From: Myxococcota bacterium
Lineage (GTDB): Bacteria; Myxococcota_A; UBA9160; UBA6930
Direction of reading: 5' to 3'
Assembly: GCA_965223705.1 (NCBI GenBank)
Contig: OZ245015.1
Location: 3,584,001 to 3,648,000, forward strand
DNA length: 64,000 nt
Numbering within the stretch: position 1 is the first letter of the stretch; the number at the start of each line of letters is the position of its first letter. Positions 30,712 to 51,386 of this stretch are shown here, one piece after another. A program made the position numbers and the translations under genes. The notes under the pieces were generated by a model. It was not told the origin of the DNA. It was given only the letters and a program-made list of their open reading frames with translations, and ran no database searches.

Positions 30712-30740
30712 TGGTGGACGCGGCGGGGATCGAACCCGCG
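30712..30740 (-). repeat. tmRNA-like 3'-end fragment (att site 1, diverged)
   Basis: Reverse complement CGCGGGTTCGATCCCCGCCGCGTCCACCA (T-arm, acceptor strand, CCA). Confidence 0.75.
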
Positions 30741-30873
30741 TGCGATTCAATCAACTCAGGGACTTACGCCCGAAATAGGCTCCTGCGGGCCTCCTGGACA
30801 GACAACCCAAATTTGAGGTTATACGACCCAATAATTGGGTTATCCTACAGGTTCCCCGATACGGTCGGTCAAC

Positions 30874-31206
30874 ATGCTGGAAGGCATCTTCGGAAACGCC
30901 AGCGCCGAGAAGATCCTGCTCTATCTCGAGCAGTATGAGGAAGGCTACGCGACAGCGATCGCCCGAACCTTCGATGACCTCTCGCTCAACATGGCGCAGC
31001 GGCAGCTCGAGCGTTTCGAGCGCGCCGGAGCCTTGGTGAGCTCGCTCCAGGGACGCACCCGCCTCTACACCTGGAATCCCCGTTATCCGTTTCGGCGCGA
31101 GCTACGCGCTCTCCTGCGTAAGGCGCTCGACCAGCTACCGGCCTCCGAGCGCAAGCGTTATTTCACTGAGCGCAGACGGCCGCGCAGAACGGGCAAGCCT
31201 CTTTGA
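30874..31206 (+). CDS. Winged-HTH protein, putative antitoxin
   Basis: MLEGIFGN..KILLYL..YATAIAR..QRQLERFE..GRTRLY; overlaps the next gene. Confidence 0.75.
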   Translation: MLEGIFGNASAEKILLYLEQYEEGYATAIARTFDDLSLNMAQRQLERFERAGALVSSLQGRTRLYTWNPRYPFRRELRALLRKALDQLPASERKRYFTERRRPRRTGKPL

Positions 31207-31760
31207 GCAAGAAGCCTCGGATCAGTGCGCGCACCTCTCTCGAGGATCTGGCCGCCCTCGTCTGCTCGACGCTCGAAGCGCACGGCATCTCGGTCGTCCT
31301 CTCCGGCGGCGCGGTCGTCTCGATCTACTCCGACACGGAGTACGTCTCGTATGACCTCGACTTCGTTCCGATCGGGCTCGCCCGCAAGGTCGACGCCGCC
31401 ATGCAGGGCCTCGGCTTCGAGAAGACGCAGCGCCACTGGACGCATCCGAAGAGCCGCTACTGGGTCGAGTTCCCGCCCGGTCCCGTCGCGATCGGAGAGG
31501 AGACCATCCGCGACTTTGCGGAGCGCGAGACACGGATGGGGACGCTGCGACTCCTGGCCCCCACGGAGTGTGTCATGGACCGGCTCGCCTGGTACTTCCA
31601 CGACGCGGACACGCAGTGTCTCGAACAAGCGGTGGAGGTTGCGACGCGACATCGCGTGGATCTGAAGCGCATCGCGCGGTGGGCGCGCAACCAGCGGCCA
31701 CATGGCGAGGCGCGGTTTCGAGAGTTCGAGGGGCGACTGCGGGAGGCTTCCGGCCGGTAG
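31203..31760 (+). CDS. Pol-beta-type nucleotidyltransferase (AbiEii/DUF6036-like), putative toxin
   Basis: VLSGGAVV..YVSYDLDF (GG..DxD). Confidence 0.7.
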   Translation: MSKKPRISARTSLEDLAALVCSTLEAHGISVVLSGGAVVSIYSDTEYVSYDLDFVPIGLARKVDAAMQGLGFEKTQRHWTHPKSRYWVEFPPGPVAIGEETIRDFAERETRMGTLRLLAPTECVMDRLAWYFHDADTQCLEQAVEVATRHRVDLKRIARWARNQRPHGEARFREFEGRLREASGR

Positions 31761-31855
31761 GCCTATCTGAGCCACGGGGAAGAGGGCGAAGGGGCCCCCG
31801 CGATTGCCCCCACCGGAGTCCCCGAGCTTCGGTAGGATGGCCGCCAGGAGGACCC

Positions 31856-32713
31856 ATGCAGAACATCACATGGACCATCGGAGACGTCCGGATCACCCGC
31901 ATCGTGGAGGTGGAGGCCCAGCTTCCCTTCGAGGAGTTCCTGCCCCAGGCGAGCCCCGAGGCGCTCGCGCCCTACGAGGAGTGGTTGCGGCCGCACTTCC
32001 TCAACGACGACGGCACCCTCACGCTCTCGGTCCACGCGCTGCTGGTCGAATCCGCCGGGCGGAAGATCATCGTCGACACCTGCGTGGGCGAGAAACCGAT
32101 CGAGGGCTTCGAGATCCTGAACCCCGCGTCCTACGACTTCCTCGATCGCCTCGCCGCGGCGGGCTTCCCCCGCGAGAGCATCGACACCGTGCTTTGCACC
32201 CACCTGCACTTCGACCACGTCGGGTGGAACACGATGCGCGAGGGCGACGGCTGGGTGCCCACCTTCCCGAACGCCCGCTACCTCTTCGCTCGCGCCGAGT
32301 GGGACCACTGGCACAGCGAAGAGGACGCCCCGTTCACCTCGACCCTTGCCGAAACGGTGACCTGTGTGATCGACGCCGGGCTCGCCGACCTCGTCGAGAC
32401 CGACCACAAGCTCACCGACGAGGTGCGGCTCGAGGCGACTCCGGGCCACACCCCGGGCCACGTCTCGGTGCACATTGAGTCGGGCGGCGAGCACGCTGTG
32501 ATCACCGGCGACATGACGCACCACCCGGTGCAGTGGGCCGAGCCCACCTGGGGCATCTCCGCCGACGTCGACCCGGCGCGCGCCGCCGACACACGACGCC
32601 GTCTCGCCCGCGAGCACGCCGACTCTGGCACGCTCGTGATCGGCACCCACTACCCGACGCCGACGGCGGGCCACCTTCGCACGCGGAACGGGGGTTGTCG
32701 CTTCGAGGTTTAA
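31856..32713 (+). CDS. MBL-fold metallo-hydrolase
   Basis: THLHFDHVGWN, TPGHTPGH, GD, GTH; AGGAGG RBS. Confidence 0.9.
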   Translation: MQNITWTIGDVRITRIVEVEAQLPFEEFLPQASPEALAPYEEWLRPHFLNDDGTLTLSVHALLVESAGRKIIVDTCVGEKPIEGFEILNPASYDFLDRLAAAGFPRESIDTVLCTHLHFDHVGWNTMREGDGWVPTFPNARYLFARAEWDHWHSEEDAPFTSTLAETVTCVIDAGLADLVETDHKLTDEVRLEATPGHTPGHVSVHIESGGEHAVITGDMTHHPVQWAEPTWGISADVDPARAADTRRRLAREHADSGTLVIGTHYPTPTAGHLRTRNGGCRFEV

Positions 32714-32720
32714 GCGTTAG

Positions 32721-32745
32721 CGGTGGAGGCGGCGAGAATCGAACC
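32721..32745 (-). repeat. tmRNA-like 3'-end fragment (att site 2)
   Basis: CGGTGGAGGCGGCGAGAATCGAACC, 2 mismatches to the consensus. Confidence 0.8.
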
Positions 32746-32941
32746 TGGCACCCACCGCCGAGAAGCCCTGTGTTTCTGGCGCGTAGCCGTTTCCAAGTGT
32801 GACCTCGGGCGCTCCGGACGAAGAGGGAAGAGCCAGGTGTCCGACTTTTGGACGTGTCGCGCGGTTGTCAGGCGAAGGCGCGCCTCACTTGCGCACCTGA
32901 AACGCCCACACTTATTGGGCGCCGGCCAGGGATTGGCTGAT

Positions 32942-36058
<3,117 letters not shown>

Positions 36059-36982
36059 CTAGTGGTCATGAGAGGCGCCGGCTTTCTCGATGTCGGCCTT
36101 CACGACAAAGCTGTTCTTCGTCACGTACCGGGTCCCGGGCTCGAGACCTCCAAGCACTTCGACCCACTCCGCGGAACGCCGCCCGAGATCGAGCATGCGA
36201 ACCTCGTATTCCTCCCCCACTTGGGCGTATACGACCGTGAACTCGCGAAACTTCTGAAGGCCTTCCCGCCGCACGGCGAGCGGAACCTCGTGTTCGGCTA
36301 TGGTGATTCGGGCCGTGGCGAAAACCCCCGGAACGAGGACACCGTTCGGGTTATCCAGCACCGCGCGAGCAATGACGGATTGGTCTGGCTGGGCGACGAC
36401 GTCAATAGCCGAGATCGTTCCCGCTGCTCCCTGCCCACCTCCGGTCAGCGTGACCACGACGGGATTTCCGACGTGTACGCGCGCCCGATCTTTCGGGAAC
36501 AGAAAGAGCTCTGCCCACACCGAAGACGTATTCGTCAACGTCATCAGCAAACGATCGCTCGTATGCTCCCCGGGGTTAGCGTCTCGCTGTGTCACGACGC
36601 CGGCTATGGGAGCGACCACGTTGTATCGATTGAGGCTTCGGTCGCTCTCGATCGTCAGGAGTGTGTCGCCCTTCGACACGCGGTCCCCGATCTCAGCGTG
36701 CACAGCCCGAACGACACCCCCGAAGCGCGCGCGCAGTTCCCTGACCTGCTCGCGGTTGGGCACGATTTTCCCGTAGACCTCGACCGCGTCCGGAATGACC
36801 GCTCCACCCGCGATCTCCGTTTCGATACCGAGCGCCTCGGCGACGTCTCGAGCGATTCGCGTTCGGCCTTCGAAGTCTTCGTGCTGACCATGGGCGTGAT
36901 CGTGATCGGCGTGCTCCCCGATCTCTCCGGTTTCACCGCAGGCCATCGCGAGTGCGGCGACGAAACTGATGAACCACCTCAT
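36059..36982 (-). CDS. czcB: CzcB-like RND periplasmic adaptor
   Basis: Lipoprotein-like N-terminus, His-rich, APIAGVV, KADIEKAGASHDH. Confidence 0.88.
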   Translation of the reverse strand: MRWFISFVAALAMACGETGEIGEHADHDHAHGQHEDFEGRTRIARDVAEALGIETEIAGGAVIPDAVEVYGKIVPNREQVRELRARFGGVVRAVHAEIGDRVSKGDTLLTIESDRSLNRYNVVAPIAGVVTQRDANPGEHTSDRLLMTLTNTSSVWAELFLFPKDRARVHVGNPVVVTLTGGGQGAAGTISAIDVVAQPDQSVIARAVLDNPNGVLVPGVFATARITIAEHEVPLAVRREGLQKFREFTVVYAQVGEEYEVRMLDLGRRSAEWVEVLGGLEPGTRYVTKNSFVVKADIEKAGASHDH

Positions 36983-38217
36983 GACGCGGCGACCCCTTGC
37001 CCGGTAAGGCGTTCTAGGGTGATCACGAGTCGATGTGCCGCCGCGCTCGCTGCGATGAGTTCTGTTTCGGCTTCGAGAAGATCGACCCGGACGGCCCGCC
37101 AGTCCGAGTAGCTGTAGCGACCCTGCTCGTAGCCACGGAGGGTTTCGTCCAGTGCGCGAGCGAGCCGCGGAATGACTTCCTCTCGCAGTGTTTCTGCGCG
37201 ATGAATGTGATGCTCGAGCTCTTCGTAGGCTTGAAACAGTGTTGTGCTCGTCTTGACACGCGCGGCTTCTGCTTCAGCCTGGGTTCGTGCGATGGCCGAG
37301 CGCGACGCCGCGATTTCACCCTGGTTCCGATTGAAAACCGGCAATGGAACGCTGACTTCGGCGACGAACGCCACGTCATCGGTGGCCTCGCTACGGCGAA
37401 TCCCGAGCCGCGGCTTGAACTTTGGCCAGCGCTGCGCGTGGGCGAGTTGCAGATTCGCCTTGGCTACGCGCTCTGCTGAGAGCAGGCGCACCACCTGCGG
37501 ACCCCGATCGACCCGCGCCAGAAATGCGTCGAAGGGCTGAGGCGTGGGAACGCGAAGGATGCTCCCATCAGCCCGATCGAACGCGGGCTTCACCTTCCCC
37601 CATTGGGCGGCGAGACGACGACGCGCGATCTCGAGTTCGTGTACGACATCATCTCGAGCCAACTGAACCTTGGCGAGCTCCGCCTCCGCGCGTGCGAGTT
37701 CCGCCCTGGGTGTTCTTCCCGCTCGCACGCGTCGGCGCACCGCGGCGACAGCTTCTTCGGAATAGGTGACTGCTTCCGAAGCCTTTTCGAGATGCTCTTG
37801 CTCCTCGAGATTCGTGATGAACCGCTCTGCCGTTTCCCCGGCCACCTCGAGCCGGAGAATCGTCGCCTCGGAAACGAGGAGCGATGAGCGCGCTTCGGCC
37901 GCTGCGACCCGCTTTCGACGAATCGAGCGCTCGAGTACCCATCCGAGACTGATTGTGGTTTGCGCGCGGTCGAAACCCGAGAACGAGTCGGTCCCGGCGA
38001 AATCTTCGACTTCGAGATTGAGTTCTGGATTGGGAAGCAGCCCGGACTGTGCGACCCGAGCAGACTGTTCTCTCAGGCGATGTTCGAACGCTGCGAGTTC
38101 CGGGTTGTGAGAAACTGCTCGCTCGAGGGCTTCATCCAGTGCAAGGGCGTGTCCTGTCTCAGGGAAAAGCGCTAAGGCGATCGCAACCCAACGGATCGAC
38201 GAAACTTTGGAAAGCAT
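36979..38217 (-). CDS. czcC: CzcC-like TolC outer-membrane factor
   Basis: NPEL, LLPNPEL, VPLPVFNRNQG. Confidence 0.88.
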   Translation of the reverse strand: MLSKVSSIRWVAIALALFPETGHALALDEALERAVSHNPELAAFEHRLREQSARVAQSGLLPNPELNLEVEDFAGTDSFSGFDRAQTTISLGWVLERSIRRKRVAAAEARSSLLVSEATILRLEVAGETAERFITNLEEQEHLEKASEAVTYSEEAVAAVRRRVRAGRTPRAELARAEAELAKVQLARDDVVHELEIARRRLAAQWGKVKPAFDRADGSILRVPTPQPFDAFLARVDRGPQVVRLLSAERVAKANLQLAHAQRWPKFKPRLGIRRSEATDDVAFVAEVSVPLPVFNRNQGEIAASRSAIARTQAEAEAARVKTSTTLFQAYEELEHHIHRAETLREEVIPRLARALDETLRGYEQGRYSYSDWRAVRVDLLEAETELIAASAAAHRLVITLERLTGQGVAAS

Positions 38218-38316
38218 GGTTCATTCCTGGAAGATGCTCGCTGCTGCGAGCGAAAACTCGTAGCTGCGTCTTTACGCGGTGCCGCGCGAAGCACGCGACA
38301 CGCCAGCTCACATCAA

Positions 38317-38742
38317 CTAGGAATTCGGCGGGGCCCTTGGGCCGGAGACCGCACCGCGGTCGGTACTACGGAGAGACGGCCCCACGGCGGGGATCCATGA
38401 CGGGGATGTCTTTGAGAGACTGGGCTCGACGGAGACCGAATACGCCGGAGCGAAGTCAGTTATCGGGCTCTTTGCAATCGCGAGCGTGAGCGGAGAGTCC
38501 GGGTGCATATGGTCGTGACCATGCTTCGCGGCACATCGCTCTCGATCGTGTAGCTCTAGCTCGTGAAAACTCTCGTGTGCGTGGTGTAGATGGTGGAGCG
38601 CGTGACTGACATCCCAGAAGCCGGACATCATCCATGCGACAACCAGAAGGAAAGCCGAGCCCCGCCGCCGAGGTTCACGCTCCAACCCTCGTCGGTGTCG
38701 CGTCACTTCCATTGCTTCACTTACTCTAGTCGGCCTCCGCAA
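38317..38742 (-). CDS. His-rich small protein upstream of czcC (CzcI/DUF2946-like)
   Basis: TM segment, HALHHLHHAH..HGHDHMH, C-terminal RAPP. Confidence 0.6.
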   Translation of the reverse strand: MRRPTRVSEAMEVTRHRRGLEREPRRRGSAFLLVVAWMMSGFWDVSHALHHLHHAHESFHELELHDRERCAAKHGHDHMHPDSPLTLAIAKSPITDFAPAYSVSVEPSLSKTSPSWIPAVGPSLRSTDRGAVSGPRAPPNS

Positions 38743-39247
38743 CTCCTACCAATGAGCCGCCGCGCGAGGATCTCGTCAGGCTATCGACCCGAGGAGCAGT
38801 CCGCTTGAGGCCGTTCCAAGGAGTCCTTGTGCTGGTGTGGACTGTCATCGCATGGACTGGATGGCCGAGCGGTGGTTACCGCCCGGAGCAAACACCCCCG
38901 ACGGAGTTTTCCCTTTCGCATCCACTCGAGTTGGCCAGACACTTACCGAGGCAGAATGGAATGTGTTCATTTCCGTTCCGTCTCTGAGGTCGCGCATCCT
39001 GCTGCCTCCACCGGGATCAACCGGCCTGCGCATCCGCAGCCATCCTTTCGCTCCAGGAAAAATAGAGGGAAGTCACCTGTGTACCGGACTTCATCTGGAG
39101 CCTTCTGCCGCATCAGGCAGCTTCGTCGGGGCTCTGAACCCGCTGATGGGACTATTGCGTCGATCAGGGTGTCGAGCGAAGAGGAAACACATTTGTGAGT
39201 CCCGGCGCTCTTCGAGTTCGGAAGCCTCAAAAACTCCGGACAGTTAG

Positions 39248-39272
39248 TGGTGGAGGCGGCGGGAATCGAACC
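39248..39272 (-). repeat. tmRNA-like 3'-end fragment (att site 3)
   Basis: TGGTGGAGGCGGCGGGAATCGAACC. Confidence 0.88.
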
Positions 39273-39398
39273 TGTCGCAAGGCGGGCAAGAAGCCAACGA
39301 AATCGGGCACTTCCAAGTCCGGATCGGCGCTCGGATTGGGCGCTGGAGAGGACGACGAAGTGCCACCCGGGCGATGCCAGCGTACCCGGTCTTCTGTA

Positions 39399-39420
39399 GT
39401 ATTACTTCCCGAGGTAATAC
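39399..39420. promoter_or_regulatory. Inverted-repeat operator of vapBC
   Basis: GTATTACTTC-CC-GAGGTAATAC immediately before the antitoxin ATG. Confidence 0.7.
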
Positions 39421-39421
39421 C

Positions 39422-39652
39422 ATGAAGATCACCACCAAGGGACAGGTGACCATCCCCGTCGAGATCCGCGAGAAGCTCGGACTGCTGCCCAACACCGAGG
39501 TCGAGTTCGAGATCGTCGGCAAGGCCGTCCGGATGCGGAAGGTCCGGCGTGCGGGGCGCCGCGGGAAATCCATCGTCGAGCGACTGCGTGGCCGCGGATC
39601 CGTTCGCATGAGCACGGACGAGATCCTGGCGCTGACCCGGGGCGATCGCTGA
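39422..39652 (+). CDS. vapB: AbrB/MazE-type antitoxin
   Basis: MKITTKGQVTIPVEIREKLGL. Confidence 0.9.
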   Translation: MKITTKGQVTIPVEIREKLGLLPNTEVEFEIVGKAVRMRKVRRAGRRGKSIVERLRGRGSVRMSTDEILALTRGDR

Positions 39653-40050
39653 CCGTCCTCGTCGACAGCAACGTCCTGCTCGACATCATGACCGAGGATC
39701 CGGAATGGTCCTCCTGGTCCGGGGAGACCCTCGCCGAGTGCGCGGAGAGCTCGTCGCTCGCGATCAATCCGCTCATCTATGCCGAGGTGTCGATCCGGTT
39801 CGAGCGGATCGAGGAGCTCCAGGACGCCCTTTCCGAGGACGACTTCCTCCGACTCCCCCTGCCCTGGGAGGCCGCCTTCCTGGCCGGGAAGTGCTTCGTA
39901 CGATATCGGCGTCGACGCGGCCCGCGGAGATCTCCCCTGCCCGACTTCTACATCGGCGCCCACGCGGCCGTCGCAGGACTGACCCTGGTTACCCGGGATG
40001 CGACGCGTTACCGCACGTACTTCCCCGGACTCGAGATCATCGCTCCTTAG
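39649..40050 (+). CDS. vapC: PIN-domain toxin, CTG start overlapping the antitoxin stop
   Basis: LTVLVDSNVLLD..YAEVS..LPDFYIGAHA..LVTRD. Confidence 0.9.
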   Translation: MTVLVDSNVLLDIMTEDPEWSSWSGETLAECAESSSLAINPLIYAEVSIRFERIEELQDALSEDDFLRLPLPWEAAFLAGKCFVRYRRRRGPRRSPLPDFYIGAHAAVAGLTLVTRDATRYRTYFPGLEIIAP

Positions 40051-40395
40051 GGAGCTGAGGCCGAATGCCTCCTGAACTGGCGAAGACGAAGTCCGCATAC
40101 AATGCGGGGGCCTCCCGGCGCGGTGTGAGCGGCAGCCGGGTTATGCGCGAGGCCCTGGAGAACTTGGAGCCAAAGCGGAGGGCGGCTTGGAAGAAGCCCT
40201 AAGCAGTACGACCAATGCGAATCGAGCAGGAGTTTCCTGCTTTCCGCAGAAACCTTCGAAACAACGTCGGGTTAGGGGCCAAGGAGCGCTTGCGTTGCGC
40301 ACCTGGAAGGCCTGCACTTCCACGCCGCGGGTTCGATTAGCACAGAGTACAGACCCTTTTCGGGTCCAAAGACCCCATTTATTCCAGATAGTTAG

Positions 40396-40422
40396 TGGTG
40401 GAGGCGGCGGGAATCGAACCCG
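40396..40422 (-). repeat. tmRNA-like 3'-end fragment (att site 4)
   Basis: TGGTGGAGGCGGCGGGAATCGAACCCG. Confidence 0.88.
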
Positions 40423-40579
40423 GCTCCGGGCCGCCTAACGCCTCGAAAGACAACGAGACCGACGAGTGAACGCTTGTCGCCAGGTTGTCGCCGAAGCGTG
40501 CCTGGCCGCGTCCCTGGGGGCCAAAAAGAGAGCAGGCATTCGACCGAGCGCATCCACGGGGTGAGCCAAGGGGACCTGC

Positions 40580-41305: not shown

Positions 41306-41358
41306 GAGTCCCAAGATCGCCTCACCTGCTTGGTCAGGCAAGCAGTTTGCTCGACCGC

Positions 41359-41386
41359 TTGACATGTTTAGCGAATTCAGTACAAT
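41359..41386 (+). promoter_or_regulatory. Sigma70-type promoter
   Basis: TTGACA-16 bp-TACAAT, divergent from the XRE gene. Confidence 0.65.
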
Positions 41387-41434
41387 TAGCAAGCCATACA
41401 ACCTACTCTGGCGATGAAGCCATCAGGGGGGACC

Positions 41435-41998
41435 ATGCAAGGAACCGAAGAGCGGAACGGGTCGGACGAGGCCACGGGGCTCGTCAGCTGCTTCTGGTGC
41501 GAGCAACTGCACCAGGGGGAACATCCGCTTTCCGTCTGCTCTACGTGCCGGACCAGGCTCGCGACGCTGGGATCGCTCGGCATGAGCGGATCGTACCCCC
41601 TGAACGACGAGGCGATCGACGCGGCCCTGACCCAGAAGTCCCCGGGCAACTACGCCCTCGGGTACCTGGATGACGATGCGTTCGTGGTGTTCTACGTCGG
41701 GCGCTCGGCATCGGACGTGAGACGGCGCCTCCACGAATGGGTCGGAATGCCGAGCCGGTTCGAGAGATACGCTCCCCAGGCGAAAACGTCGTGGGACGTA
41801 CGCCGCCGCGGGAGCGCTCCCATCACCACCCCGGCGCTCGGGACCGTGACGAACGCCGACACCGGCTACACGCGTTTCGCCTTCAGCTACGCGGCTTCCG
41901 CCGAGGCCGCGTTCGAGAGGGAGTGTCGCAACTACGACGATTTCGGCGGCAGCCGGGCGCTCGACAACGAGGCGCCTCCGACTCCTGCTCACCTCTAG
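41435..41998 (+). CDS. GIY-YIG-like protein with N-terminal Cys pairs
   Basis: CFWC..CSTC; PGNYALG..FYVGRS..VRRRL..AFERE..LDN. Confidence 0.6.
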   Translation: MQGTEERNGSDEATGLVSCFWCEQLHQGEHPLSVCSTCRTRLATLGSLGMSGSYPLNDEAIDAALTQKSPGNYALGYLDDDAFVVFYVGRSASDVRRRLHEWVGMPSRFERYAPQAKTSWDVRRRGSAPITTPALGTVTNADTGYTRFAFSYAASAEAAFERECRNYDDFGGSRALDNEAPPTPAHL

Positions 41999-42063
41999 AG
42001 AAGCCAGCTGCCCACCATCACGCAATCCACTGGAGCCCGAAGGCGGCGCTGCCGAAGGCCCGC

Positions 42064-42657
42064 ATGAGCTCGTACCTGTCCCTGTCCGGCTTGGACTCCG
42101 CGTTCCTTTCGTTGGAGACGCGGACTACGCCGATGAACATCCTGGGGACGTTTGTGCTCGATGCCTCCTGCACGAGCGGGTACTCGTACGAGCGATTGCT
42201 GGAGCGCGTCGAGACCCGTCCGCCCACGCTGGCCCCCCTCCGACGCCGGATGATTCGCATGCCGCTCCGTCTCGACCATTCGATCCGGATCGACGATCCC
42301 GAGTTCGACGTTCGACGCCACGTCCAGAGACTGCGTGCCCCCGCTCCGGGCTCGGACCGCGTCCTCGCTGATCTGGTGGCCCGGGTCGCCTCGCAGCGCC
42401 TCGATCGAGCTCGTCCCCTCTGGCAGCTGTGGGAGATCGGAGGTTTGACCGAGGCTCGGGGCGCCCTCGTCTTCAAGCTTCACCACGCGGTGGGGCAGCA
42501 GCACGCTCGCCTGGGCGTCGCGGCTCTCGGAGAGTGGGCCGAGTTCACGTCCAGCGGGTTCCTCGGAAGCGCCGCGCGCTTATCGCCACGCAGGACTTCC
42601 CGGCCCTGCGATAGCCGCGCTCGATTGGGAATGCAACCGCGGGTTCGTGAAGCGTGA
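42064..42657 (+). pseudogene. WS/DGAT acyltransferase with internal deletion
   Basis: LSGLDSAFL..LDRARPLW..KLHHAV then jumps to a C-terminal-like WAEF segment; HHxxxDG is incomplete. Confidence 0.7.
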
Positions 42658-42868
42658 CGCCGGGTGCGTTGCCGTCGACGTACCCGCGAACGGCTACCTC
42701 GCGTCTTCGGGACGCGGCTGGGAATGCGATCGTGGCTTCAAGAAGACGGACGATGCGTGCATGGCCCTCGAGCCGCCGGCCAATGCGCATATCACCCATT
42801 CGGGAAACGGGTGGCCCGGCTACCGGCAGGAGGGAGACGTGTGCAACAAGAACGCCCGACGGAGGTAG
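42622..42868 (+). pseudogene. Fragment of a Cys-rich repeat protein
   Basis: Repeats WECNRGF..C..VPANGY..GRGWECDRGF..C..PANAH..GNGW. Confidence 0.55.
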
Positions 42869-42873
42869 CTGCG

Positions 42874-43347
42874 ATGTCGGATTTCTCCTTTCTGGCCCCG
42901 GCACCGGGCAAGGTCCGGATCTTCGTGAGCTACGACTGCGAGCACGACGAGGACCTGATGGATCGACTCGTCGAAGAGGTATCGGAGTCGACCTCCGGAC
43001 TCGAGATCTCGGGCCGATCGACGATGCCGCATCGAACCGCGCACCTCACGGATCTCTGGGATGAAGGGCTGCGACGCTCGATCCGGAAGGTGGACCAGGT
43101 CGTCGTCCTCTGCGGCGAGCACACCGAGCTCTCGAGCTGCGTGGCGGCCGAGCTTCGCATCGCCCAGGAGGAGGAGCGGCCCTACGTGCTCCTCTGGGGC
43201 CGGCGCGAGCCCATGTGCACGAGGCCCTCGACCGCGAAGCCCGGGGACGGCATGTACAGCTGGACCCCCGAGATCCTCCAGAGCCAGATCCTCATGCACC
43301 GCCGCGCCGCCGCGGGGCCGAAGAAGCGCGACGGCAAGAACGCGTGA
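42874..43347 (+). CDS. TIR domain protein (MTH538/DUF1863, ThsB-like)
   Basis: RIFVSYD..D, IRKVDQVVVLCGEHT..SCVAAEL (catalytic Glu), YSWT; GGAGG RBS. Confidence 0.82.
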   Translation: MSDFSFLAPAPGKVRIFVSYDCEHDEDLMDRLVEEVSESTSGLEISGRSTMPHRTAHLTDLWDEGLRRSIRKVDQVVVLCGEHTELSSCVAAELRIAQEEERPYVLLWGRREPMCTRPSTAKPGDGMYSWTPEILQSQILMHRRAAAGPKKRDGKNA

Positions 43348-44078
43348 TGATCGAGTCCATTCTCCTCAGCACGGTGCCGATCGCGACGTACACCGGCCGC
43401 CAGCCTCTGACCAACGCCACCGGCTTCTTCTTCGAGCGCGACACAAGGACGTTCCTGGTCACGAGCCGCCACGTCGTCGTGGATGCAGCGAGCAGCCACT
43501 ACCCGGACCGGCTGGAGATCGAGATTCACACCGACCTCGAGAACGTCGCCAAGACGACGGGCTTCTCCATCCCCCTCTACCGCGACCGCCGGAGCCTCTG
43601 GCGTCAGGCCCGGGATGGGGCGGGCGGAGTCGACGTGGCAACGATCGAGATCGATCGATCCGCGCTGCCCGAGACGGCCGCGTTCCGGTCCTTCACGCCG
43701 GACCACCTGCTCCCGGGGGACGAGCGCGTCGAGATCGGGACTCCGGTCCTGATCCTGGGCTTTCCACTCGGCTTCCACGACGCCCTCCACCGCATCCCGG
43801 TGGCGCGCCAGGCGATCGTTGCGTCGTCGTTCGGCCTGCGCTTCCAGGGCGAGGGGTACTTCCTGACCGATGCGCGGACCCATCGCGGCAGCAGTGGCTC
43901 GCCGGTGGTGATGCGTACGGCGCAGCCCCAAGTGGACGACCCCGCCCTTCCCTGGAGGCTCCTCGGCGTGCATTCCGCGCGGCTCGATGTGGGCGGACGG
44001 GAATTGAACGAGGACGAGGCGCTTGGGTTGAACTGTGCGTGGTACGCGGACATCCTGTTGACCCTGACCGAAGATTGA
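43347..44078 (+). CDS. Trypsin-like serine protease without signal peptide
   Basis: ATGFF, VTSRHV (His), VDVA (Asp), GSSGSPV (Ser); TGATG coupling to the TIR gene. Confidence 0.85.
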   Translation: MIESILLSTVPIATYTGRQPLTNATGFFFERDTRTFLVTSRHVVVDAASSHYPDRLEIEIHTDLENVAKTTGFSIPLYRDRRSLWRQARDGAGGVDVATIEIDRSALPETAAFRSFTPDHLLPGDERVEIGTPVLILGFPLGFHDALHRIPVARQAIVASSFGLRFQGEGYFLTDARTHRGSSGSPVVMRTAQPQVDDPALPWRLLGVHSARLDVGGRELNEDEALGLNCAWYADILLTLTED

Positions 44079-44128
44079 GCCCTGAAGCCCGTGAGGATCG
44101 GCCGGGCGGGTCCCCTACTCTTCCGACC

Positions 44129-46405
44129 ATGCCGAAGAAGCGCGCGTGGGAGCGCCGCGATCCGGAGGCGCGGGCCGAGGCCCGCAACCACGCCCATCCG
44201 GTGCCGAGCCGGACGTACCTTCGGCGGTACCTGAACGAACGAGGCGCTCCCGTTCCGCTCGCCGCCCTCGTGGAGGCGTTCGCGCTGGATCGCCGGGAGG
44301 AGCGGGCCCTCAACGCCCGACTGAAGGCCATGGTTCGCGACGGCGAGATCCTCCCGAACCGCCGGAACGAGTACTGCCTGGTCGATCGCCTCGATCTTGT
44401 CACCGGCGCTGTGAGCGCGCATCGCGACGGCTTCGGCTTCGTCGTCCCCGACGAGGAGGGAGCCGACGACGTCTACCTCTCCCCGCGCGCCATGCGAGAG
44501 CTGATCCACGGAGACCGGGTGGCCGTCCGGATCCGGGGCCACGATCGACGAGGGCGTCCCGAAGGCTCACTCGTCGAGGTGCTCGAGCGCAACACCCGCT
44601 CGGTGGTCGGGAAGTACCGCCGGGAGCAGGGGGTCGGCTTCGTCGCCCCCGAGAACCCACGCATCCCGCATCGGATCGTGGTGCCCGCCGACGCGGCGGG
44701 CGGCGGGAGGCCGGGGCAGGTGGTGCTCGTCGAGCTCACGGCGCAGCCCACCCGCGAGACCCAGCCCATCGGGCGCATCGTCAAGGTTCTGGGCAAGCCG
44801 AGCGCGCCGGGCATCGAGATCGAGATCGCCATCCATTCCCATGGGCTGCCCACCGACTGGCCGGCAGCCGCCGAGAAGCAGGCCCGGCGGCTGGGGGCGG
44901 AGGTGCCGGCGGCGGCGAAGCGCGGGCGCGAGGATCTGCGACAGCTCCCATTGCTGACCATCGATGGCGCCGATGCCCGCGACTTCGACGACGCGGTCTT
45001 CTGCGAGCCGGCGGGGAAGGGCTGGCGGCTCTACGTGGCCATCGCCGACGTCGCGCACTACGTGGAGCGCGGGTCGCCGCTCGACGAGGAGGCCCGGAAC
45101 CGCGGGACATCGGTCTACTTCACGCGCCGAGTCCTCCCGATGCTGCCGGAGGCGCTCTCCAACGGGCTCTGCTCGCTCAACCCCCAGGTCGATCGCCTCT
45201 GCATGGTCTGCGAGATGCGGGTGGGACGCGACGGTCGGATCTCGCGGGCACGCTTCTTCGAAGCCGTCATGCGCTCCCAGGCGCGGCTCACGTATCAGGA
45301 GGTCGCCCGCATGCTCTTCGACGGCGACATCGAGCTCCGCCGGAGGTATGCCCGGCTGCTCCCCCACCTCGAAGACCTGAACGACGTGTTTCGCGCGCTC
45401 CTCGAACGGCGCCGCCGGCGCGGCGCCATCGACTTCGACATCCCCGAGGCGTACGTCGAGCTGGGCGAAGATCGCCGGATCGAGTCGATCAGCACCTACG
45501 AGCGCAACGATGCGCATCGCATGATCGAGGAGTGCATGATCGCAGCCAACGTCTCCGCGGCGCGCTTCCTCCACCGCCACGAGATCCCCGCGCTGTACCG
45601 CGTCCATGACGGGCCCGCATCGGACCGGCTCGAGGAGCTCAAACGCTTTCTCGCGACCTTCGGGGTCCCGTTTCCGAAAGCCAAGGATCTCCGCCCTCGG
45701 CATTTCGCCCGGGTGCTCGAACGCGTCAAGGACCGGCCCCACCGCACGTTGGTCGAGACGCTGCTGCTCCGCTCGATGGCGCGCGCCGCCTACCAGCCGG
45801 ACGACCTCGGGCACTTCGGACTCGCCCTCTCCCACTACGTCCACTTCACCTCCCCCATTCGGCGCTATCCCGATCTCCTCGTCCACCGCGCCATCAAGCA
45901 CGTGCTGTCGGGCGAGCCTCCGGGACGCTTCCCCTACTCACCCAAGGACATGGACGGGCTCGGCAAGCACTGCTCGATGACCGAGCGGCGGGCCGACGAC
46001 GCCACCCGGGACGCGATCGCATGGCTCAAGTGCGAATTCATGCGCGACAAGGTCGGCGAAGTGTTCGAGGGCGTGATCACGGGCGTGACGAGCTTCGGCG
46101 TCTTCGTCCAGCTCGAGGCCGTCTTCATCGAGGGATTGGTGCACGTGACGTCCCTCGAGAACGACTACTACGAGCTCGACGCTCCCAGGCACCGACTCGT
46201 CGGCGCCCGCACTCGCAAGACCTACCAGCTCGCTGCGCCGCTCCGCGTGCGGGTGGCGGCCGTGGATATGGAGCAGCGCCGGATCGACTTCGAACCGGTG
46301 CAGCCGAAGCCCCGATCGCGGCGGAGGCGGCGCCGAGCGAAGCCTGCGGACGCGAGCACTCCCGAGCGCCGCCGAACGCAGGCAGACGGAAAATCCCGGA
46401 TATAG
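44129..46405 (+). CDS. rnr: Ribonuclease R
   Basis: HRDGFGF, TIDGADARDFDDA, HFTSPIRRYPDL, S1 domain, basic tail; true start is ATG 44129. Confidence 0.93.
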   Translation: MPKKRAWERRDPEARAEARNHAHPVPSRTYLRRYLNERGAPVPLAALVEAFALDRREERALNARLKAMVRDGEILPNRRNEYCLVDRLDLVTGAVSAHRDGFGFVVPDEEGADDVYLSPRAMRELIHGDRVAVRIRGHDRRGRPEGSLVEVLERNTRSVVGKYRREQGVGFVAPENPRIPHRIVVPADAAGGGRPGQVVLVELTAQPTRETQPIGRIVKVLGKPSAPGIEIEIAIHSHGLPTDWPAAAEKQARRLGAEVPAAAKRGREDLRQLPLLTIDGADARDFDDAVFCEPAGKGWRLYVAIADVAHYVERGSPLDEEARNRGTSVYFTRRVLPMLPEALSNGLCSLNPQVDRLCMVCEMRVGRDGRISRARFFEAVMRSQARLTYQEVARMLFDGDIELRRRYARLLPHLEDLNDVFRALLERRRRRGAIDFDIPEAYVELGEDRRIESISTYERNDAHRMIEECMIAANVSAARFLHRHEIPALYRVHDGPASDRLEELKRFLATFGVPFPKAKDLRPRHFARVLERVKDRPHRTLVETLLLRSMARAAYQPDDLGHFGLALSHYVHFTSPIRRYPDLLVHRAIKHVLSGEPPGRFPYSPKDMDGLGKHCSMTERRADDATRDAIAWLKCEFMRDKVGEVFEGVITGVTSFGVFVQLEAVFIEGLVHVTSLENDYYELDAPRHRLVGARTRKTYQLAAPLRVRVAAVDMEQRRIDFEPVQPKPRSRRRRRRAKPADASTPERRRTQADGKSRI

Positions 46406-46652
46406 CGGCATCGCCGCACCTCAAGGATGAGGCCCTGGCTCCCTGAGGACCAATGGGCGACCGTCTTCACGGGCGAGAGAGTCCCTGCAAGCACCGAAAC
46501 GCCATCAGACCGCGGAGGGCAACTTCGTCTGTGGACTCTGCGGCGATCGCTGGCCGCGGGTCTGGCGCCATCAGCTACGCGGGGAGGTCCAGGAAACCCG
46601 GCGCCCGGGCGGCCTGCCGCCGGGCACAACTTCAACGTTTTCAGATAGTTAG

Positions 46653-46675
46653 TGGTGGAGGCGGCGGGAATCGAA
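46653..46675 (-). repeat. tmRNA-like 3'-end fragment (att site 5)
   Basis: TGGTGGAGGCGGCGGGAATCGAA. Confidence 0.85.
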
Positions 46676-46846
46676 ACAGCCGCTTCGAAGGGCGCCGCGG
46701 AAGAAGCCCTAGGCAATTGCTCCAACGCGAGCCGAGCAGGAGGAACCGATGTTGGCCCGATTAGTACGGCAATTGCCCCTCGGGCCACTGTCACCTGTCC
46801 CGAGTAAGCACTACCGTGTCGCCTCTTCAGTCTTGGTGTTGTCCGC

Positions 46847-47617
46847 ATGAATCTTCGCCAGATCCGAAACGCCACCCTGTTGCTTGAATACGCCGGCACG
46901 CGCTTCCTGGTTGATCCGTGGTTCGCTGGGAAGGGAAGCCAACCGGGCTTCCAAGGCACACTCAATAGTCATTTGAGGAACCCGACTGCCGAACTGGTAG
47001 TACCCGTCGCCGAACTCGTTGATATCGACGCCGTGGTTCTCACCCATGTCCACCCGGACCACTGGGATGAGGTCGCCGCGGATGCGCTGCGCAAAGACAT
47101 CCCCTTCTTCGTCCAGCACTTCGGCGACAGAGCGACCATTGAGGCTGCTGGGTTCACCAACGTTCATGCGCTAGTCGGCAACCCGACCTTCAACGGGGTC
47201 AAGCTCACACGAACACCCGGACAGCACGGATCCGACGGCTGCCTGCAGGCCGCCTACGACATCCTGGGCGAAGTCTGTGGTGTCCTGTTCCGTCACCCTG
47301 AGGAAAAGTCTCTCTACCTGGCCGGCGACACGGTTTACAACGACTATGTCGCCGCCAACCTCGCCGTTTATGTTCCGGATATCGTGGTGATGAATTGCTG
47401 CGACGCCCAGGTGATTGGGCTCGGTTCAATCATCATGAACACTGGTGACGTGAAATCCGTCTACGAAGCGGCGCCACAAGCCACACTGATCGCCAGCCAC
47501 ATGGAAGCGGTCAATCATGCGGCGCTCACTCGCGCCGAATTGCGGACGTTTGTTCAGGAAAATCACATGGAAGATCGCATCATCATTCCGGCCGATGGAG
47601 AGACTCTCAGACTCTGA
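46847..47617 (+). CDS. MBL-fold metallo-hydrolase
   Basis: QIRNAT, LVDP, THVHPDHWD, YLAGDT, HMEAVNH. Confidence 0.9.
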   Translation: MNLRQIRNATLLLEYAGTRFLVDPWFAGKGSQPGFQGTLNSHLRNPTAELVVPVAELVDIDAVVLTHVHPDHWDEVAADALRKDIPFFVQHFGDRATIEAAGFTNVHALVGNPTFNGVKLTRTPGQHGSDGCLQAAYDILGEVCGVLFRHPEEKSLYLAGDTVYNDYVAANLAVYVPDIVVMNCCDAQVIGLGSIIMNTGDVKSVYEAAPQATLIASHMEAVNHAALTRAELRTFVQENHMEDRIIIPADGETLRL

Positions 47618-47659
47618 TCCCGGAAGCGGTTTTCACACTTTCAACAAGGTCGGCCCGCC

Positions 47660-48070
47660 ATGACGACACCGGTGGAAAACAAGGTACTCGTGAAGCGCTT
47701 CTACGAGGCTATTGAGCAGAAAAACTTCGATGCGCTGGATGAAATGTGCCATGACGACTTCGTTTTCTACAACCAGATCGACACGCCGCATCCGGGGGTC
47801 GAAGGCCTGATTGCCGCGGAGAAGAGGAACTTCGATGCTTTTGAAAGCTTCCGCTTTCCCATCGAAACCCTGATTGCGGAGGGCGACAAGGTTGCGGCCT
47901 ACATGATCTTCGAGGGTCGCAATCAGATCGGTCCGTGCGTCGGCGCCAGCCCGAAGGGCAGCGACTGTCGCTTCTCGCTGCTCATGCTGCTGACCATCAA
48001 AGACGGAAAGATCGTCGAGAAGCGTGCCCACTTCGATACCGGCGACATCTATCGGCAGCTAACTGCCTAG
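47660..48070 (+). CDS. SnoaL-like/ester cyclase (NTF2 fold)
   Basis: ENKVLVKRFY, IAEGDKV, KDGKIVE. Confidence 0.85.
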   Translation: MTTPVENKVLVKRFYEAIEQKNFDALDEMCHDDFVFYNQIDTPHPGVEGLIAAEKRNFDAFESFRFPIETLIAEGDKVAAYMIFEGRNQIGPCVGASPKGSDCRFSLLMLLTIKDGKIVEKRAHFDTGDIYRQLTA

Positions 48071-48146
48071 GGCTCCGGCCGCGTAGAGAGAGCGCAGTGC
48101 GCTGCCCGCACAAGCTTTGCCATCTCGCGAACGTAAGGAGCTGCTC

Positions 48147-49787
48147 TTGAGCCAGCGGCGGGAATTAGCCCTCATCAATGCGGTCGTCCGCACCGTCGAT
48201 ACCGGGGACTCTGTCGCTCGGGCCGTGCTGATTCGCGACGGGCGTATCGCCGCGGTCGGCCCCGGACCTGTAGTCAGACGTACCGCCAGTCCCGATGCCG
48301 AAATCATCGACTTGGGCGGGGCGACGGTGGTTCCCGGCTTTATCGATGCACACAATCATTTAAGCATCGCCGCCTTTGCGCCAGAGTGCGTCGACTGTTC
48401 GACACCACCGAAATCCACGCTGGCAGAGGTCCTCGAAGCCATCGAACATCACTGCAAGAGCGCGCCCCCGGGTCAATGGGTCCGCGCGATGGGTTTCAAC
48501 CTGACGCATGTCCGGGAAATGCGAAATCCCACCCGCTTCGAGTTGGACGAGGTCGCTCCCGACAACCCCGTCTTTCTCATCGACGCGAGCTGCCACGCCG
48601 GGTTCGTCAACAGCACGGCGCTGGCCCGTGTGGGCATCGACGAGCACACGCCGGACCCGGCGGGTGGCGAAATCGAACGGGACAAAACGGGCGTCCCGAC
48701 CGGTTCCCTGTACGAGAACGCAGCGAATCCGCTGCACTCACACTCGTGGAACGAGTACGCGGAGCGTGACTGGGATCGTTCGGTCGAACTACTCCACTCG
48801 AAAATGCGGGAGTACCTGGCGGTTGGCATCACCTTCGTCGGCGACGCGATGGTGACGTCGAGATCCGCACAGCTCTACCGCCTGGCGGATCGTCAGGGCA
48901 AGCTGCCGTTCGGTGTCCAGATGCTGCACGCCGCGGACCATTTTTTCGATACCCACGATCTGCGCCGGTCGGACATCATCGACCGTATCAAGGAACCCGC
49001 CAGCGAGCGCCTGATTGGCGGGACGATGAAGATCTTCGTCGACCGGGCTTACCCATCGCCGGCCATCGACAAGATGCATCATGGCTGCTGTGCGCATACC
49101 GGCGCAGCTTTCTATCCGAAAGCGGAGGTTGGGCGCCTCGCGCAACGCGCAGTCGAACTCGACATCGCCACAGCGATCCACGGCATGGGCAATTGTGCGG
49201 TGAACACCGTCATGGATGCTTATAAGACAAGCCGGCGCGGGCGAAGCACCGATGCGGTCCTGAGACTGGAACACGCGTTCGTGGCCGAACCAGCGCAAGC
49301 GCTGCGGATGGCGGATCTCGGTATTGACCTCGTGGTCAACCCGGGGCTTGCCTGGCTATGGGGTGAAGTGTTCGACATGTGGCGGGGCGAGAATCAACAT
49401 CATCTGAAACTCTTTCCTACCAGGAGCATGATCGATGCCGGTGTGCGCGTCAGCCTCGGTTCCGATCATCCTTGCGGAAGTTTTTCGCCCGCTGAAATCA
49501 TATCGACGGCGGTGAACAGGGTTTCCTCTAAGGGCATGCACGTCGACCCCGAAGAAGCCATCACTGCAGCCGAAGCGCTGCGCGCGTATACGATCAACGC
49601 CGCCCACGCCTCGAACCGGGCAGACAAAGAAGGCAGTATCGAAGTTGGCAAGCGAGCCAACCTCGTCGTACTGGACCGCGACATCGTGACCTGTCCGACC
49701 GACGAGATCGGTGATACGCAGGTCACCATGACCTACGTCGACGGCGAATGTGCCTACGAATCAGCGGGGAGTGCGGGCGCCAGCTAG
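48147..49787 (+). CDS. Amidohydrolase (YtcJ-like)
   Basis: PGFIDAHNH, RLEHA, GSD, YTINAA, GSIEVGKRAN; TTG start after AAGGAG. Confidence 0.9.
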   Translation: MSQRRELALINAVVRTVDTGDSVARAVLIRDGRIAAVGPGPVVRRTASPDAEIIDLGGATVVPGFIDAHNHLSIAAFAPECVDCSTPPKSTLAEVLEAIEHHCKSAPPGQWVRAMGFNLTHVREMRNPTRFELDEVAPDNPVFLIDASCHAGFVNSTALARVGIDEHTPDPAGGEIERDKTGVPTGSLYENAANPLHSHSWNEYAERDWDRSVELLHSKMREYLAVGITFVGDAMVTSRSAQLYRLADRQGKLPFGVQMLHAADHFFDTHDLRRSDIIDRIKEPASERLIGGTMKIFVDRAYPSPAIDKMHHGCCAHTGAAFYPKAEVGRLAQRAVELDIATAIHGMGNCAVNTVMDAYKTSRRGRSTDAVLRLEHAFVAEPAQALRMADLGIDLVVNPGLAWLWGEVFDMWRGENQHHLKLFPTRSMIDAGVRVSLGSDHPCGSFSPAEIISTAVNRVSSKGMHVDPEEAITAAEALRAYTINAAHASNRADKEGSIEVGKRANLVVLDRDIVTCPTDEIGDTQVTMTYVDGECAYESAGSAGAS

Positions 49788-49817
49788 TTTCCTGTACATC
49801 GGTTCTCACATTGGCGA

Positions 49818-50804
49818 CTACGAAAGCGGAATCTTGATTGCAGCGAAGCCCTGCCGCCACGCGTTGGGCGACAGCCCCACGGAGCGACGGAAATGCTGCC
49901 GCATGGAGGCAGCGGAGCCGAATCCTGTTGCCTCGGCGATCTGCTCCACTGACAATTTGGAGCCCTCGAGGAGTTGTTGGGCCTGTGCGAGTCTTTCCGC
50001 GAGAAGCCAGCTCTGAACGGTGGTCCCGGTCAGCGCTTTGAAGTGCCGGGTGAAACTGCGGCGGCTCATACATGCCTCATCGGCCAGGGTATCGAGGCTG
50101 TGCGACTCGCCAACACGACCGCGCACCGACTCTATCAACCGAGCGATACGGTGGTCCTGATCTGCTTTCGGTAGTGGGTGCTCGATGAACTGGGCCTGTC
50201 CTCCTTCCCGGTGCGGAGCAATGACGAGACGCCGTGCTACACGGTTCGCGGTGGTCGCACCCAGACGTTGGCGTAAAACATGGAGGCAAGCGTCGAGACT
50301 CGCCGCTGTGCCGGCCGATGTCAGGATGTTGCCGTCTTCGAGATACAGTACGTTGGCATCGAACTCCACGTCCGGAAAACATGCAGCCATGTCCGAGACG
50401 TACTCCCAATGGGTCGTTGCTCTGCGACCATCGAGCAAGCCGGCTTCTGCAAGCACATGGGTTCCTAGGCACAGGCCGACGATCTGCGCTCCCGCTGCGT
50501 GTGCGTCGCGGAGCGCTTTGAGCAAGCGTGGAGGCGGTCGGTCTAGTGTGTGCCGCCACCCTGGGATGACAATTGCGTCGGCTGTTCTGACCACCGAGAG
50601 CGGAGCAAGATCAGTGAGCCCGAATCCAGCCGTCGTCTTGAGTGCCCCCGACTCGCCGGCGCAAACGACGACCTCAAAAGGGCTCTGCTCAAAGAACGCG
50701 TCGCCAAAAACGAGGCTCGGGACCGAGAGATGGAACGCGATAACGCGGTCGAATGCGACGACTGCGATTCGGATGCGCTGATCCTCCCATCGCACTTTAA
50801 GCAC
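49818..50804 (-). CDS. GlxA/FtrA family AraC regulator (DJ-1 domain plus HTH)
   Basis: LCLG, GRRATTHW, TSAG, REGGQAQF, HTH. Confidence 0.92.
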   Translation of the reverse strand: MLKVRWEDQRIRIAVVAFDRVIAFHLSVPSLVFGDAFFEQSPFEVVVCAGESGALKTTAGFGLTDLAPLSVVRTADAIVIPGWRHTLDRPPPRLLKALRDAHAAGAQIVGLCLGTHVLAEAGLLDGRRATTHWEYVSDMAACFPDVEFDANVLYLEDGNILTSAGTAASLDACLHVLRQRLGATTANRVARRLVIAPHREGGQAQFIEHPLPKADQDHRIARLIESVRGRVGESHSLDTLADEACMSRRSFTRHFKALTGTTVQSWLLAERLAQAQQLLEGSKLSVEQIAEATGFGSAASMRQHFRRSVGLSPNAWRQGFAAIKIPLS

Positions 50805-51225
50805 CTCTCTACGACTGGCCCGATGTTATCGGTAGTACCAATTCTGGCCAACATTACGACTGCCTTGGCACGTGCCCTACAGAGGTAGGGCGCTGCGACA
50901 CGCCCGCTTCCGAGTTCGATAAACCCAAAAAACCAGGGTACTAAGCGGTGGAGGGCAGGAACCGGACAACGATCCGCCCGCGACCGCAACGAGTCGAGGA
51001 GACTCGGAACCGTGATAACCCCGATCATCTCGTTCGCAGGAGGAGGACGCGCCACTGGCACACGATCTCCCAGTGGGACGGTGCTTCCTGAACTCGATCG
51101 CAGGCGTAGGAGTACCTGCACTTCTAGGCGCTCTTCTGCCCGCGGGGCCTGAGTGCTTCAGATCCCGGCCGATGGAGGACCGCTACGTACACGGGCCGAG
51201 AATCCCCGACCGAATTCACCCAGCT

Positions 51226-51386
51226 GTGAGTCCCGTGTGAGTCCCGGCCTTTTCCGAGCTTGAAAAACCCTATGAAACCGGAAAGAGATTGGTGGAGGCG
51301 GCGGGAATCGAACCCGTCGCTCAGAGACAAAAACCTAGTCTTTACGGACACTTACAGAGTCCGAGGCGTGAGTCCCGTGTGAGTCC
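51226..51386. mobile_element. attP-like site: tmRNA-like core (51290-51316) flanked by two 19-bp arm-type direct repeats
   Basis: GTGAGTCCCGTGTGAGTCC at 51226-51244 and 51368-51386 around TGGTGGAGGCGGCGGGAATCGAACCCG. Confidence 0.75.

Follow-up and report, generated by a model that had tools for sequence, protein, structure and literature searches.

In Dehalococcoides, islands stand in tandem within 100 kb behind ssrA, the gene for transfer-messenger RNA (tmRNA), with direct repeats of about 20 bp and insertion at the T-loop; in the account given by McMurdie et al. (2011, PMC3146451), 15 of 31 islands have no integration module and are read as possible cis-mobilizable elements (CIMEs) or fixed remains. 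The CIME model, as outlined by Guedon et al. (2017, PMC5704250), passes from integration through decay with loss of the integration genes to the arrival of a newcomer at the gene end, the attachment (att) sites being kept. For the tRNA and tmRNA islands of Prochlorococcus, Hackl et al. (bioRxiv 10.1101/2020.12.28.424599) describe newcomers that push older elements inward, and in these tycheposons partial tRNAs and fragmented integrases are said to mark the older events. Pseudomonas IntY islands, as described in PMC12595487, combine a tyrosine integrase, a tmRNA 3' end and a direct repeat, carry no transfer genes and need IntY for excision. Islander, by its own description (PMC4383910), rejects candidates without an integrase and lists only four tandems of three or more. 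Here we analyse a tandem array at ssrA in a Myxococcota bacterium (GenBank assembly GCA_965223705.1, two contigs, 4.56 Mb). The window, by which we mean the whole stretch of 64,000 nt analysed (contig OZ245015.1, C1:3584001-3648000), had been given a preliminary description, which saw in it six tmRNA-like 3' ends delimiting five cassettes without integrases, an integron-like array possibly mobilised in trans.

We find that the six repeats are displaced ends of ssrA, and we think it likely that the five intervals between them are decayed, chimeric remains, mostly of the oldest islands stacked at that gene. We favour this reading because the arms of the islands are mismatched, the array has an age gradient, genes are fragmented, and one island end matches that of an integrase-bearing island in a relative. 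The pattern is one of site-specific accretion followed by decay, which is of a known kind, and it is not an integron.

Displaced ssrA ends and their arm repeats

All six co-oriented cores were recovered where they had been reported (Table 1), with two mismatches in each of the two most distal copies, none in the other four, and spacings of 2009, 6527, 1148, 6257 and 4637 nt; no core match arose in 100 shuffles of the sequence. The 9-nt extension beyond the CCA matches at 8, 6, 8, 9, 9 and 5 of 9 positions from 30712 to 51290, so that it is common to five copies, in one case weakly. On the minus strand the repeat reads as the tmRNA end from the T-loop to the CCA. An intact ssrA is indeed absent from the window, and a search of the genome places it at C1 c[3709970,3710336] (window-equivalent 125,970), about 62 kb past the window and in the orientation of the cores. 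Two further 3' copies lie beyond the window at window-equivalents 103,286 and 111,686. The six cores form the distal portion of an eight-copy array; the whole comprises the intact gene and eight 3' fragments in the same orientation across 95 kb, a tandem arrangement of tRNA/tmRNA gene (tDNA) islands, and no other core copy with fewer than four mismatches exists in the genome outside it. The copies become identical at the T-loop heptamer or slightly ahead of it, and the preceding 10 nt are unlike those of ssrA, which suggests a crossover within the T-loop. Judged from these alignments, the six repeats are att scars of the 3' end of tmRNA, as had been proposed, with a predicted T-loop crossover.

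Other targets fared less well. A tRNA-Ala origin is rejected since the fragments match ssrA exactly, and at up to two mismatches the array holds no other tDNA fragment except a tRNA-Gln-like 20-mer (two mismatches) that we judge to be chance. At 30712-30807 ARAGORN calls a tRNA-Pro, very probably a spurious prediction over the distal core, given its length of 96 nt and its weak stems; a normal tRNA-Pro(CGG) is present at C1:4062152. An inverted half-core (T-stem plus T-loop) at 40322-40340, at the end of a repeat copy described below, is possibly a trace of aberrant recombination.

The intervals are lettered outward from ssrA as A (14.3 kb), B (8.4), C (52.0), D (4.6), E (6.2), F (1.1), G (6.5) and H (2.0); the five of the preliminary description are D to H, and island A lies outside the window, next to ssrA. 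A scan of 101 kb found eight tandem 11-bp repeats (background 3.6 per 100 kb elsewhere), of which seven occupy the position of an arm beside a core and the eighth adjoins the integrase. Six arm repeats are of the GGGACTCACAC type, on the P' (downstream) side of ssrA, 111686, 103286 and 51290 and on the P (upstream) side of 111686 and 51290. In relatives, the genes of the same integrase clade have their 3' end adjoining ssrA or tRNA-Met, -Glu, -Asp, -Val or -Leu, and an 11-bp tandem repeat usually lies about 40-50 nt past the CCA. Its sequence varies with the integrase, and an intact island carries one repeat sequence at both ends. The tandem repeats are predicted arm-type integrase-binding sites, and they make it possible to type the island ends.

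By this typing, matched intact arm pairs occur in A and C only, of the eight intervals. In A, the repeats score 9 of 9 at both ends, the units match at 10 of 11 positions, and attL and attR are kept; B and D retain a P' arm only. None of the five intervals D to H has a matched intact arm pair, so none has usable-looking ends: the cores are kept without the full attL and attR of a CIME, and the ends belong to at least four arm types. One of these, the P arm of E, is of the GGCGACAA type used by the ssrA integrases of three relatives (G205, G086 and G076); these integrases, which carry that arm, rule out its reading as a tRNA-Glu arm. P' arms nearest ssrA are the most alike. Compared with the ssrA-proximal arm, the three closest copies score identities of 0.82, 1.00 and 0.74, and the five distal ones 0.58, 0.61, 0.71, 0.50 and 0.58, where shuffled sequences reach maxima of 0.61-0.67. 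The cores follow the same age gradient, mismatches being confined to the two most distal. Beyond the array, the exact arm repeat occurs in 2 of 224 other genomes of the class, in neither case beside a core, gives one unrelated match in the genome-contig collection, and is absent from the viral contigs.

Decay is also visible in the genes, in a truncated WS/DGAT gene in E and in pieces of a ribbon-helix-helix (RHH) gene in D and F. Judged by its two ends, F is a chimera of two islands. The segment 30686-30738 aligns at 81-84% with P' arms, giving a degenerate P'-type start after the distal core, which suggests a ninth island, older still, on its left side; just left of the window sits cargo that shares 79-85% identity with the cargo of A, and together these suggest that the array was formerly longer.

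In the mechanism we propose, a lambda-type tyrosine integrase would recombine a circular element into the 7-nt T-loop of ssrA. Each integration would restore ssrA and displace earlier islands outward. The sequence itself shows every island bounded by a T-loop-to-CCA end of ssrA and by P and P' arms whose 11-bp repeats differ with the type of integrase. Islands of several integrase types would arrive, and later deletions would join neighbours by taking out integrases, arms and, in some cases, complete cores.

The resident integrase and rival readings

The array holds one intact tyrosine integrase, inside interval C, and a search for serine recombinases across the array found none. Neither the PF00589 nor the serine recombinase search found a recombinase in D to H, as had been stated; A and B likewise have no recombinase genes, the CIME condition rather than that of an integrative and mobilizable element with its own integrase, and with one of eight intervals carrying an integrase the array falls outside the strict definition of Islander. 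The gene lies 6.2 kb from the nearest core and points away from the usual side. In an alignment of 35 homologues its catalytic-type residues do not vary, and the predicted structure (mean predicted local distance difference test score, pLDDT, 88.6) has the N-terminal three-strand-plus-helix domain of arm-binding integrases, with fold matches that include a full-length alignment to lambda integrase. The closest relative in the class (60%, genome G222) is found some 360 nt past an ssrA core that has GATTCACA-type repeats, and a homologue at 49% reads through an ssrA end; the gene of this closest relative and that of P0044 adjoin such cores or read through them. G222 carries one intact and one stub copy of this subfamily, behind similar arms. 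In the integrase tree the protein groups with ssrA integrases (support 93/97) on a long branch, for which reason we take the tree as weak support; word searches of the genome and viral contigs found no close relatives. From the G222 relative and the read-through homologue, the integrase is, by homology, of the ssrA-targeting type and plausibly cognate for the GGGACTCACAC arms, in keeping with the role suggested for it earlier. A second integrase of the clade was considered as a helper and set aside, as it belongs to a 23-kb tRNA-Asp island (C1:1667988-1691120), where it sits near the far end; an RHH homologue lies just outside that island.

For the integrase in C, possible excision units are A, C, B+C and A+B+C, since each of these stretches runs from an intact P' arm to an intact P arm that shares its type. 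Island A, a younger island with no integrase and both arms intact, fits the CIME definition and looks excisable without an enzyme of its own. The proposal of mobilisation in trans is accordingly plausible for island A alone, which lies outside the coordinates first considered, and finds no support for D to H, which as units are probably no longer excisable.

Comparison with relatives bears on the same point. The vapBC genes of F with their P arm and core (39235-40068) show 91% identity with the right-hand end of a G014 island of 6.9 kb that carries an intact integrase adjoining ssrA. In G012, rnr (82% at the nucleotide level) and wHTH-NTase, the winged helix-turn-helix (wHTH) and putative nucleotidyltransferase (NTase) genes of H, occur in a tRNA-Asp array with two integrase stubs, homology being confined to the genes. 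The wHTH-NTase genes with P arm and core (30712-31745) share 85% identity with an integrase-free stretch of G009, 1.06 kb long, that runs from core to core. The module boundaries thus recur in relatives in part: the attR side is kept in two cases (wHTH-NTase in G009, vapBC in G014) and the attL side in none. The view of the five intervals as minimal cassettes rather than decayed islands is not supported, in view of the absence of matched intact arms, the variety of arm types, the gene fragments, the match of the vapBC end to an integrase-bearing island in G014 and the company that rnr and wHTH-NTase keep in G012. Two genomes of the same genus have other DNA behind ssrA; both are distant (85% in ssrA).

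The core is present in 184 of 225 genomes of the class, and a hand count found two or more copies in 98 of the 224 others. For a survey of arm matching, we picked 35 loci in which two cores lie close together. From 31 of these, in 27 genomes, came 35 core-to-core intervals; four gave none (in two the second core had more than three mismatches, in two the interval exceeded 20 kb). An intact integrase was present in five intervals, each of which follows ssrA directly and has matched arms. Stubs were present in five (one weak), two of which had matched arms, and the remaining 25, with neither, had none. The 136 ORFs of the 30 intervals without an intact integrase gave no site-specific recombinase in Pfam, only insertion sequence (IS) transposases; the profile model used to find integrases in the survey was partly built from three of the five intact ones. 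As the sample leans towards short intervals and related genomes are not independent, the share of 30 in 35 is not a rate, and the weight of the survey lies in the coupling of integrase, position and matched arms. In one relative array (G035, locus L043, about 8380-8520) some 130 nt separate an ssrA-like core from a tRNA-Met core, which suggests mixing of target sites. Small modules (XRE with a 170-aa ORF, a Fic pair, a 749-aa tetratricopeptide repeat (TPR) protein) recur in ssrA intervals of different genomes or contigs (loci L060, L061, L058, L069, L072).

Several observations weigh against decay as the sufficient account. The match of wHTH-NTase to the integrase-free interval of G009, in which P' is likewise cut short, is the best point in favour of the cassette view. 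The comparison of gain and loss rests on genomes of other species, and the survey is biased towards single-contig intervals below 20 kb in fragmented genomes, which inflates the class without integrases. No integrase stub was found beside any P' arm in this genome; all four intact P' arms, and a 91%-identical arm in two metagenome contigs, have neither an integrase nor a stub adjoining, and these arms lose similarity within a few bases of the last repeat, so that the ends look more trimmed than random decay would leave them. The RHH tail and a repeat of 110-140 nt, which we call R, recur in several integrase-free intervals. All 11 strong copies of R lie in the array or within 2 kb of the distal core, those in the window being placed in Table 1 and more lying beyond it. 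Its variability by codon position (0.19/0.21/0.24) gives no clear codon pattern, its consensus folds weakly (-5.35 kcal/mol, 8 pairs), and it has no match in Rfam. Searches for it in the 224 class genomes (three candidates scored per genome) and in 70 relative loci, viral contigs and plasmids found none. It is possibly an origin or another cis site.

These points can be gathered into a different reading, which we regard as a minority possibility of perhaps one chance in five: a family of satellites without integrases (P, RHH, R, cargo, P', of GGGACTCACAC type), moved in trans by the integrase-primase element of C, with R as origin or transfer site and with A, B, D, G and part of F as members of different ages. 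Such islands would be purpose-built, their arms trimmed to the last repeat and R, arriving at ssrA repeatedly with differing cargo, a notion we hold as doubtful as the reading itself. Equally tentative is its corollary that A is a live member, D, F and G are older ones, and ssrA is an arm-coded cassette platform. The reading gains from the lack of an adjoining integrase or stub at all four intact GGGACTCACAC P' arms here, as at the metagenome arm and a related arm in G204, and from homology that stops right after the arm repeat. The two intact arms of A, the RHH-R junction that D and F share without the integrase-primase block, the confinement of R to the array and its flank, and the ssrA-type resident integrase with its closest class relative behind similar arms all fit it too. 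Its reach is limited to A and, in part, to B, D and G, however, since the ends in E, F and H are of other arm types; both arms exist in A only, R is absent from B, E and H, and in G222 this integrase subfamily occurs in cis, some 360 nt away from P', and also as a stub. No core-to-core joint, which would mark a circle, appears among the 15 of 44 contig joints listed for run X2, a search of contigs only that covers D to G; the X2 contigs neither show nor exclude excision. Accretion followed by decay remains our preferred account of D to H.

Contigs of X2, a short-read run, also bear on whether the array is partly an assembly artefact at repeats, which we think very improbable. They break at four of the five cores that they cover, so the order of the array is not confirmed by X2. 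Against an artefact, one X2 contig bridges the core at 32721, and long X2 contigs (perhaps from the source sample) tile 31.5-51.3 kb at a depth of 10.8-12.9. The assembly has only two contigs, every interval is unique, and an E/F-like junction with the same two arm types occurs in another organism (L026, 76% across the core).

Integrons are arrays of accessory modules between short co-oriented sites, with the integrase IntI and an attI site next to its gene. The likeness to the present array is real in that co-oriented short repeats separate small accessory modules, and 30 of the 35 relative intervals have no intact integrase. A platform on which one integrase shuffles single cassettes between identical simple sites is nevertheless an explanation to which we give almost no credence. 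Against TIGR02249, the model for integron integrases, the enzyme reaches 36.9 bits where the cut-off is 265, and its gene lies about 6 kb inside an interval rather than at the head of the array, with no position of the attI/Pc type. The repeat is a tDNA end with phage-type arms, and the intervals hold several genes on both strands over 1-52 kb. The description of the array as integron-like fails on integrase type and cassette form, and integron membership is refuted.

Interval contents and neighbouring genes

Pfam bears out most of the cargo first assigned to the intervals: helix-turn-helix (HTH) and metallo-beta-lactamase (MBL) proteins in H; AcrB, HlyD and OEP in G; AbrB with PIN in F; XRE, TIR, Trypsin_2 and RNB in E; and MBL, SnoaL, amidohydrolase and AraC/DJ-1 in D. 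The NTase and GIY-YIG labels stand on motifs seen by eye, with no matches in Pfam, NCBIfam or PADLOC. Table 1 collects the features of the window.

Table 1. Features of the distal array and of the window part of interval C
Feature	Position	Strand	Remarks
Remains left of the last core	28651..30711		wHTH/NTase junction fragment (28651-28737), two R copies (28775-29131), PEP-CTERM gene, C-terminal fragment of an FAA-hydrolase
Displaced ssrA 3' end, 8th, most distal	30712..30734	-	2 mismatches
Interval H	30735..32720		wHTH with putative NTase, MBL-fold hydrolase; degenerate TGAGGCA-like P arm, resembling those of G009 and G017; P' lost, MBL stop 7 nt from core
Displaced ssrA 3' end, 7th	32721..32743	-	CCA altered
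Interval G	32744..39247		R repeat (32802-32929), czcCBA-type resistance-nodulation-division (RND) system; P' arm with one remaining arm site (39194-39203), P arm absent
Displaced ssrA 3' end, 6th	39248..39270	-	exact; core match
Interval F	39271..40395		GCGCCCC-type P arm and vapBC, then 5'-truncated RHH gene (40083-40203), R repeat (40203-40344), degenerate GGGACTCAC-type P'
Displaced ssrA 3' end, 5th	40396..40418	-	exact; core match
Interval E	40419..46652		XRE, GIY-YIG-like ORF, WS/DGAT fragment, TIR, trypsin-like protease, rnr; P arm intact (40474-40492), P' cut after about 25 nt
Displaced ssrA 3' end, 4th	46653..46675	-	exact; P side fused to RHH 3' tail (46686-46712)
Interval D	46676..51289		MBL, SnoaL, amidohydrolase, AraC/DJ-1; P' arm intact, P lost
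Displaced ssrA 3' end, 3rd	51290..51312	-	exact; complete P-core-P' junction, two arm repeats per side (51225-51244, 51367-51386)
R repeat	54866..54997		
Arm-like 11-bp tandem repeat beside integrase	57298..57317	.	first unit 8/11 like array arm (by eye); no adjoining core
Small RHH gene, convergent with integrase	57345..57500	+	PF01402, E 4.5e-5; remnants in F and D
Tyrosine integrase, intact, sole one in array	57516..58694	-	PF00589 at 57.6-58.1 kb; inside interval C
Prim-Pol/PriCT/AAA_25 primase-helicase	59204..61207	+	divergent from integrase; core like those of phage-inducible chromosomal islands (PICI) and tycheposons
Four R repeats downstream of primase	61660..62587	+	

The rnr gene of E (44129-46405) is the sole RNase R gene of the genome and is island cargo. 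Relatives with this type are few (3 of 40 at 78-81% protein identity, and one more at 66%), and we rejected rnr as a native neighbour of ssrA on that count of 4 in 40 and on its place within the tRNA-Asp array of G012. In the same interval a TIR-domain gene is followed directly by the trypsin-like protease (42874-44078; PADLOC PDC-S45, E 8e-24), paralogues of which lie at the P' end of C and at one other locus.

Just inside the P end of C is a stand-alone reverse transcriptase (52085-53284, plus strand) whose best PADLOC matches are to a generic reverse transcriptase and to UG17/UG4, of the DRT class of reverse transcriptases, and which falls below the NCBIfam cut-offs. Two direct repeats of 131 nt upstream of it (51578-51708 and 51928-52058, 98% identical) could belong to an associated RNA. 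An IS481-family transposase follows at 53341-54400, split over two reading frames. Further into C, at window-equivalents of about 65-102 kb, is a large general-stress cluster of encapsulin with encapsulated ferritin, catalase, superoxide dismutase (SOD), BON, CsbD, DUF1328 and dodecin, parts of which are matched by paralogues with 75-83% identity at two further places in the genome.

Comparison with known islands

Our searches of the literature found no integrase-free, arm-typed ssrA array and no arm typing of such arrays. We regard the locus as a clear and unusually long case of ssrA island accretion and decay, in an uncultured class. The 11-bp arm repeats type the island ends and so separate potentially excisable members from dead chimeras, a distinction that tools relying on the core alone, or requiring an integrase, cannot make; the array also supplies an integrase and att pair. 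If the satellite reading were true, intervals at tDNAs that integrase-based finders discard for want of an integrase would be a live route of gene flow.

With integrons the array shares accessory modules between short co-oriented sites, and it differs from them in having no IntI, no attI beside the integrase, multi-gene intervals in both orientations and phage-type arms. The IntY and Islander islands, as their sources present them, carry their own integrase, unlike seven of the eight intervals here. Tycheposons, in the account on which we draw, share the displacement of older elements and the integrase-primase cores; they belong to a different phylum and integrase family, and arm typing does not figure in that account.

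The closest likeness is to the Dehalococcoides islands as published: both sets are tandem, lie less than 100 kb behind ssrA, insert at the T-loop and include many members without an integration module. There the published enzyme is a serine recombinase, DsiB, in a six-gene module; the present array has a tyrosine integrase, retained in one of eight intervals, and lambda-type arms that fall into several types. In contrast to CIMEs, only A keeps a full attL and attR, D to H keeping cores without matched arms. The order of events in the CIME accretion model as outlined, from integration through decay to newcomer, nevertheless fits the array described here.

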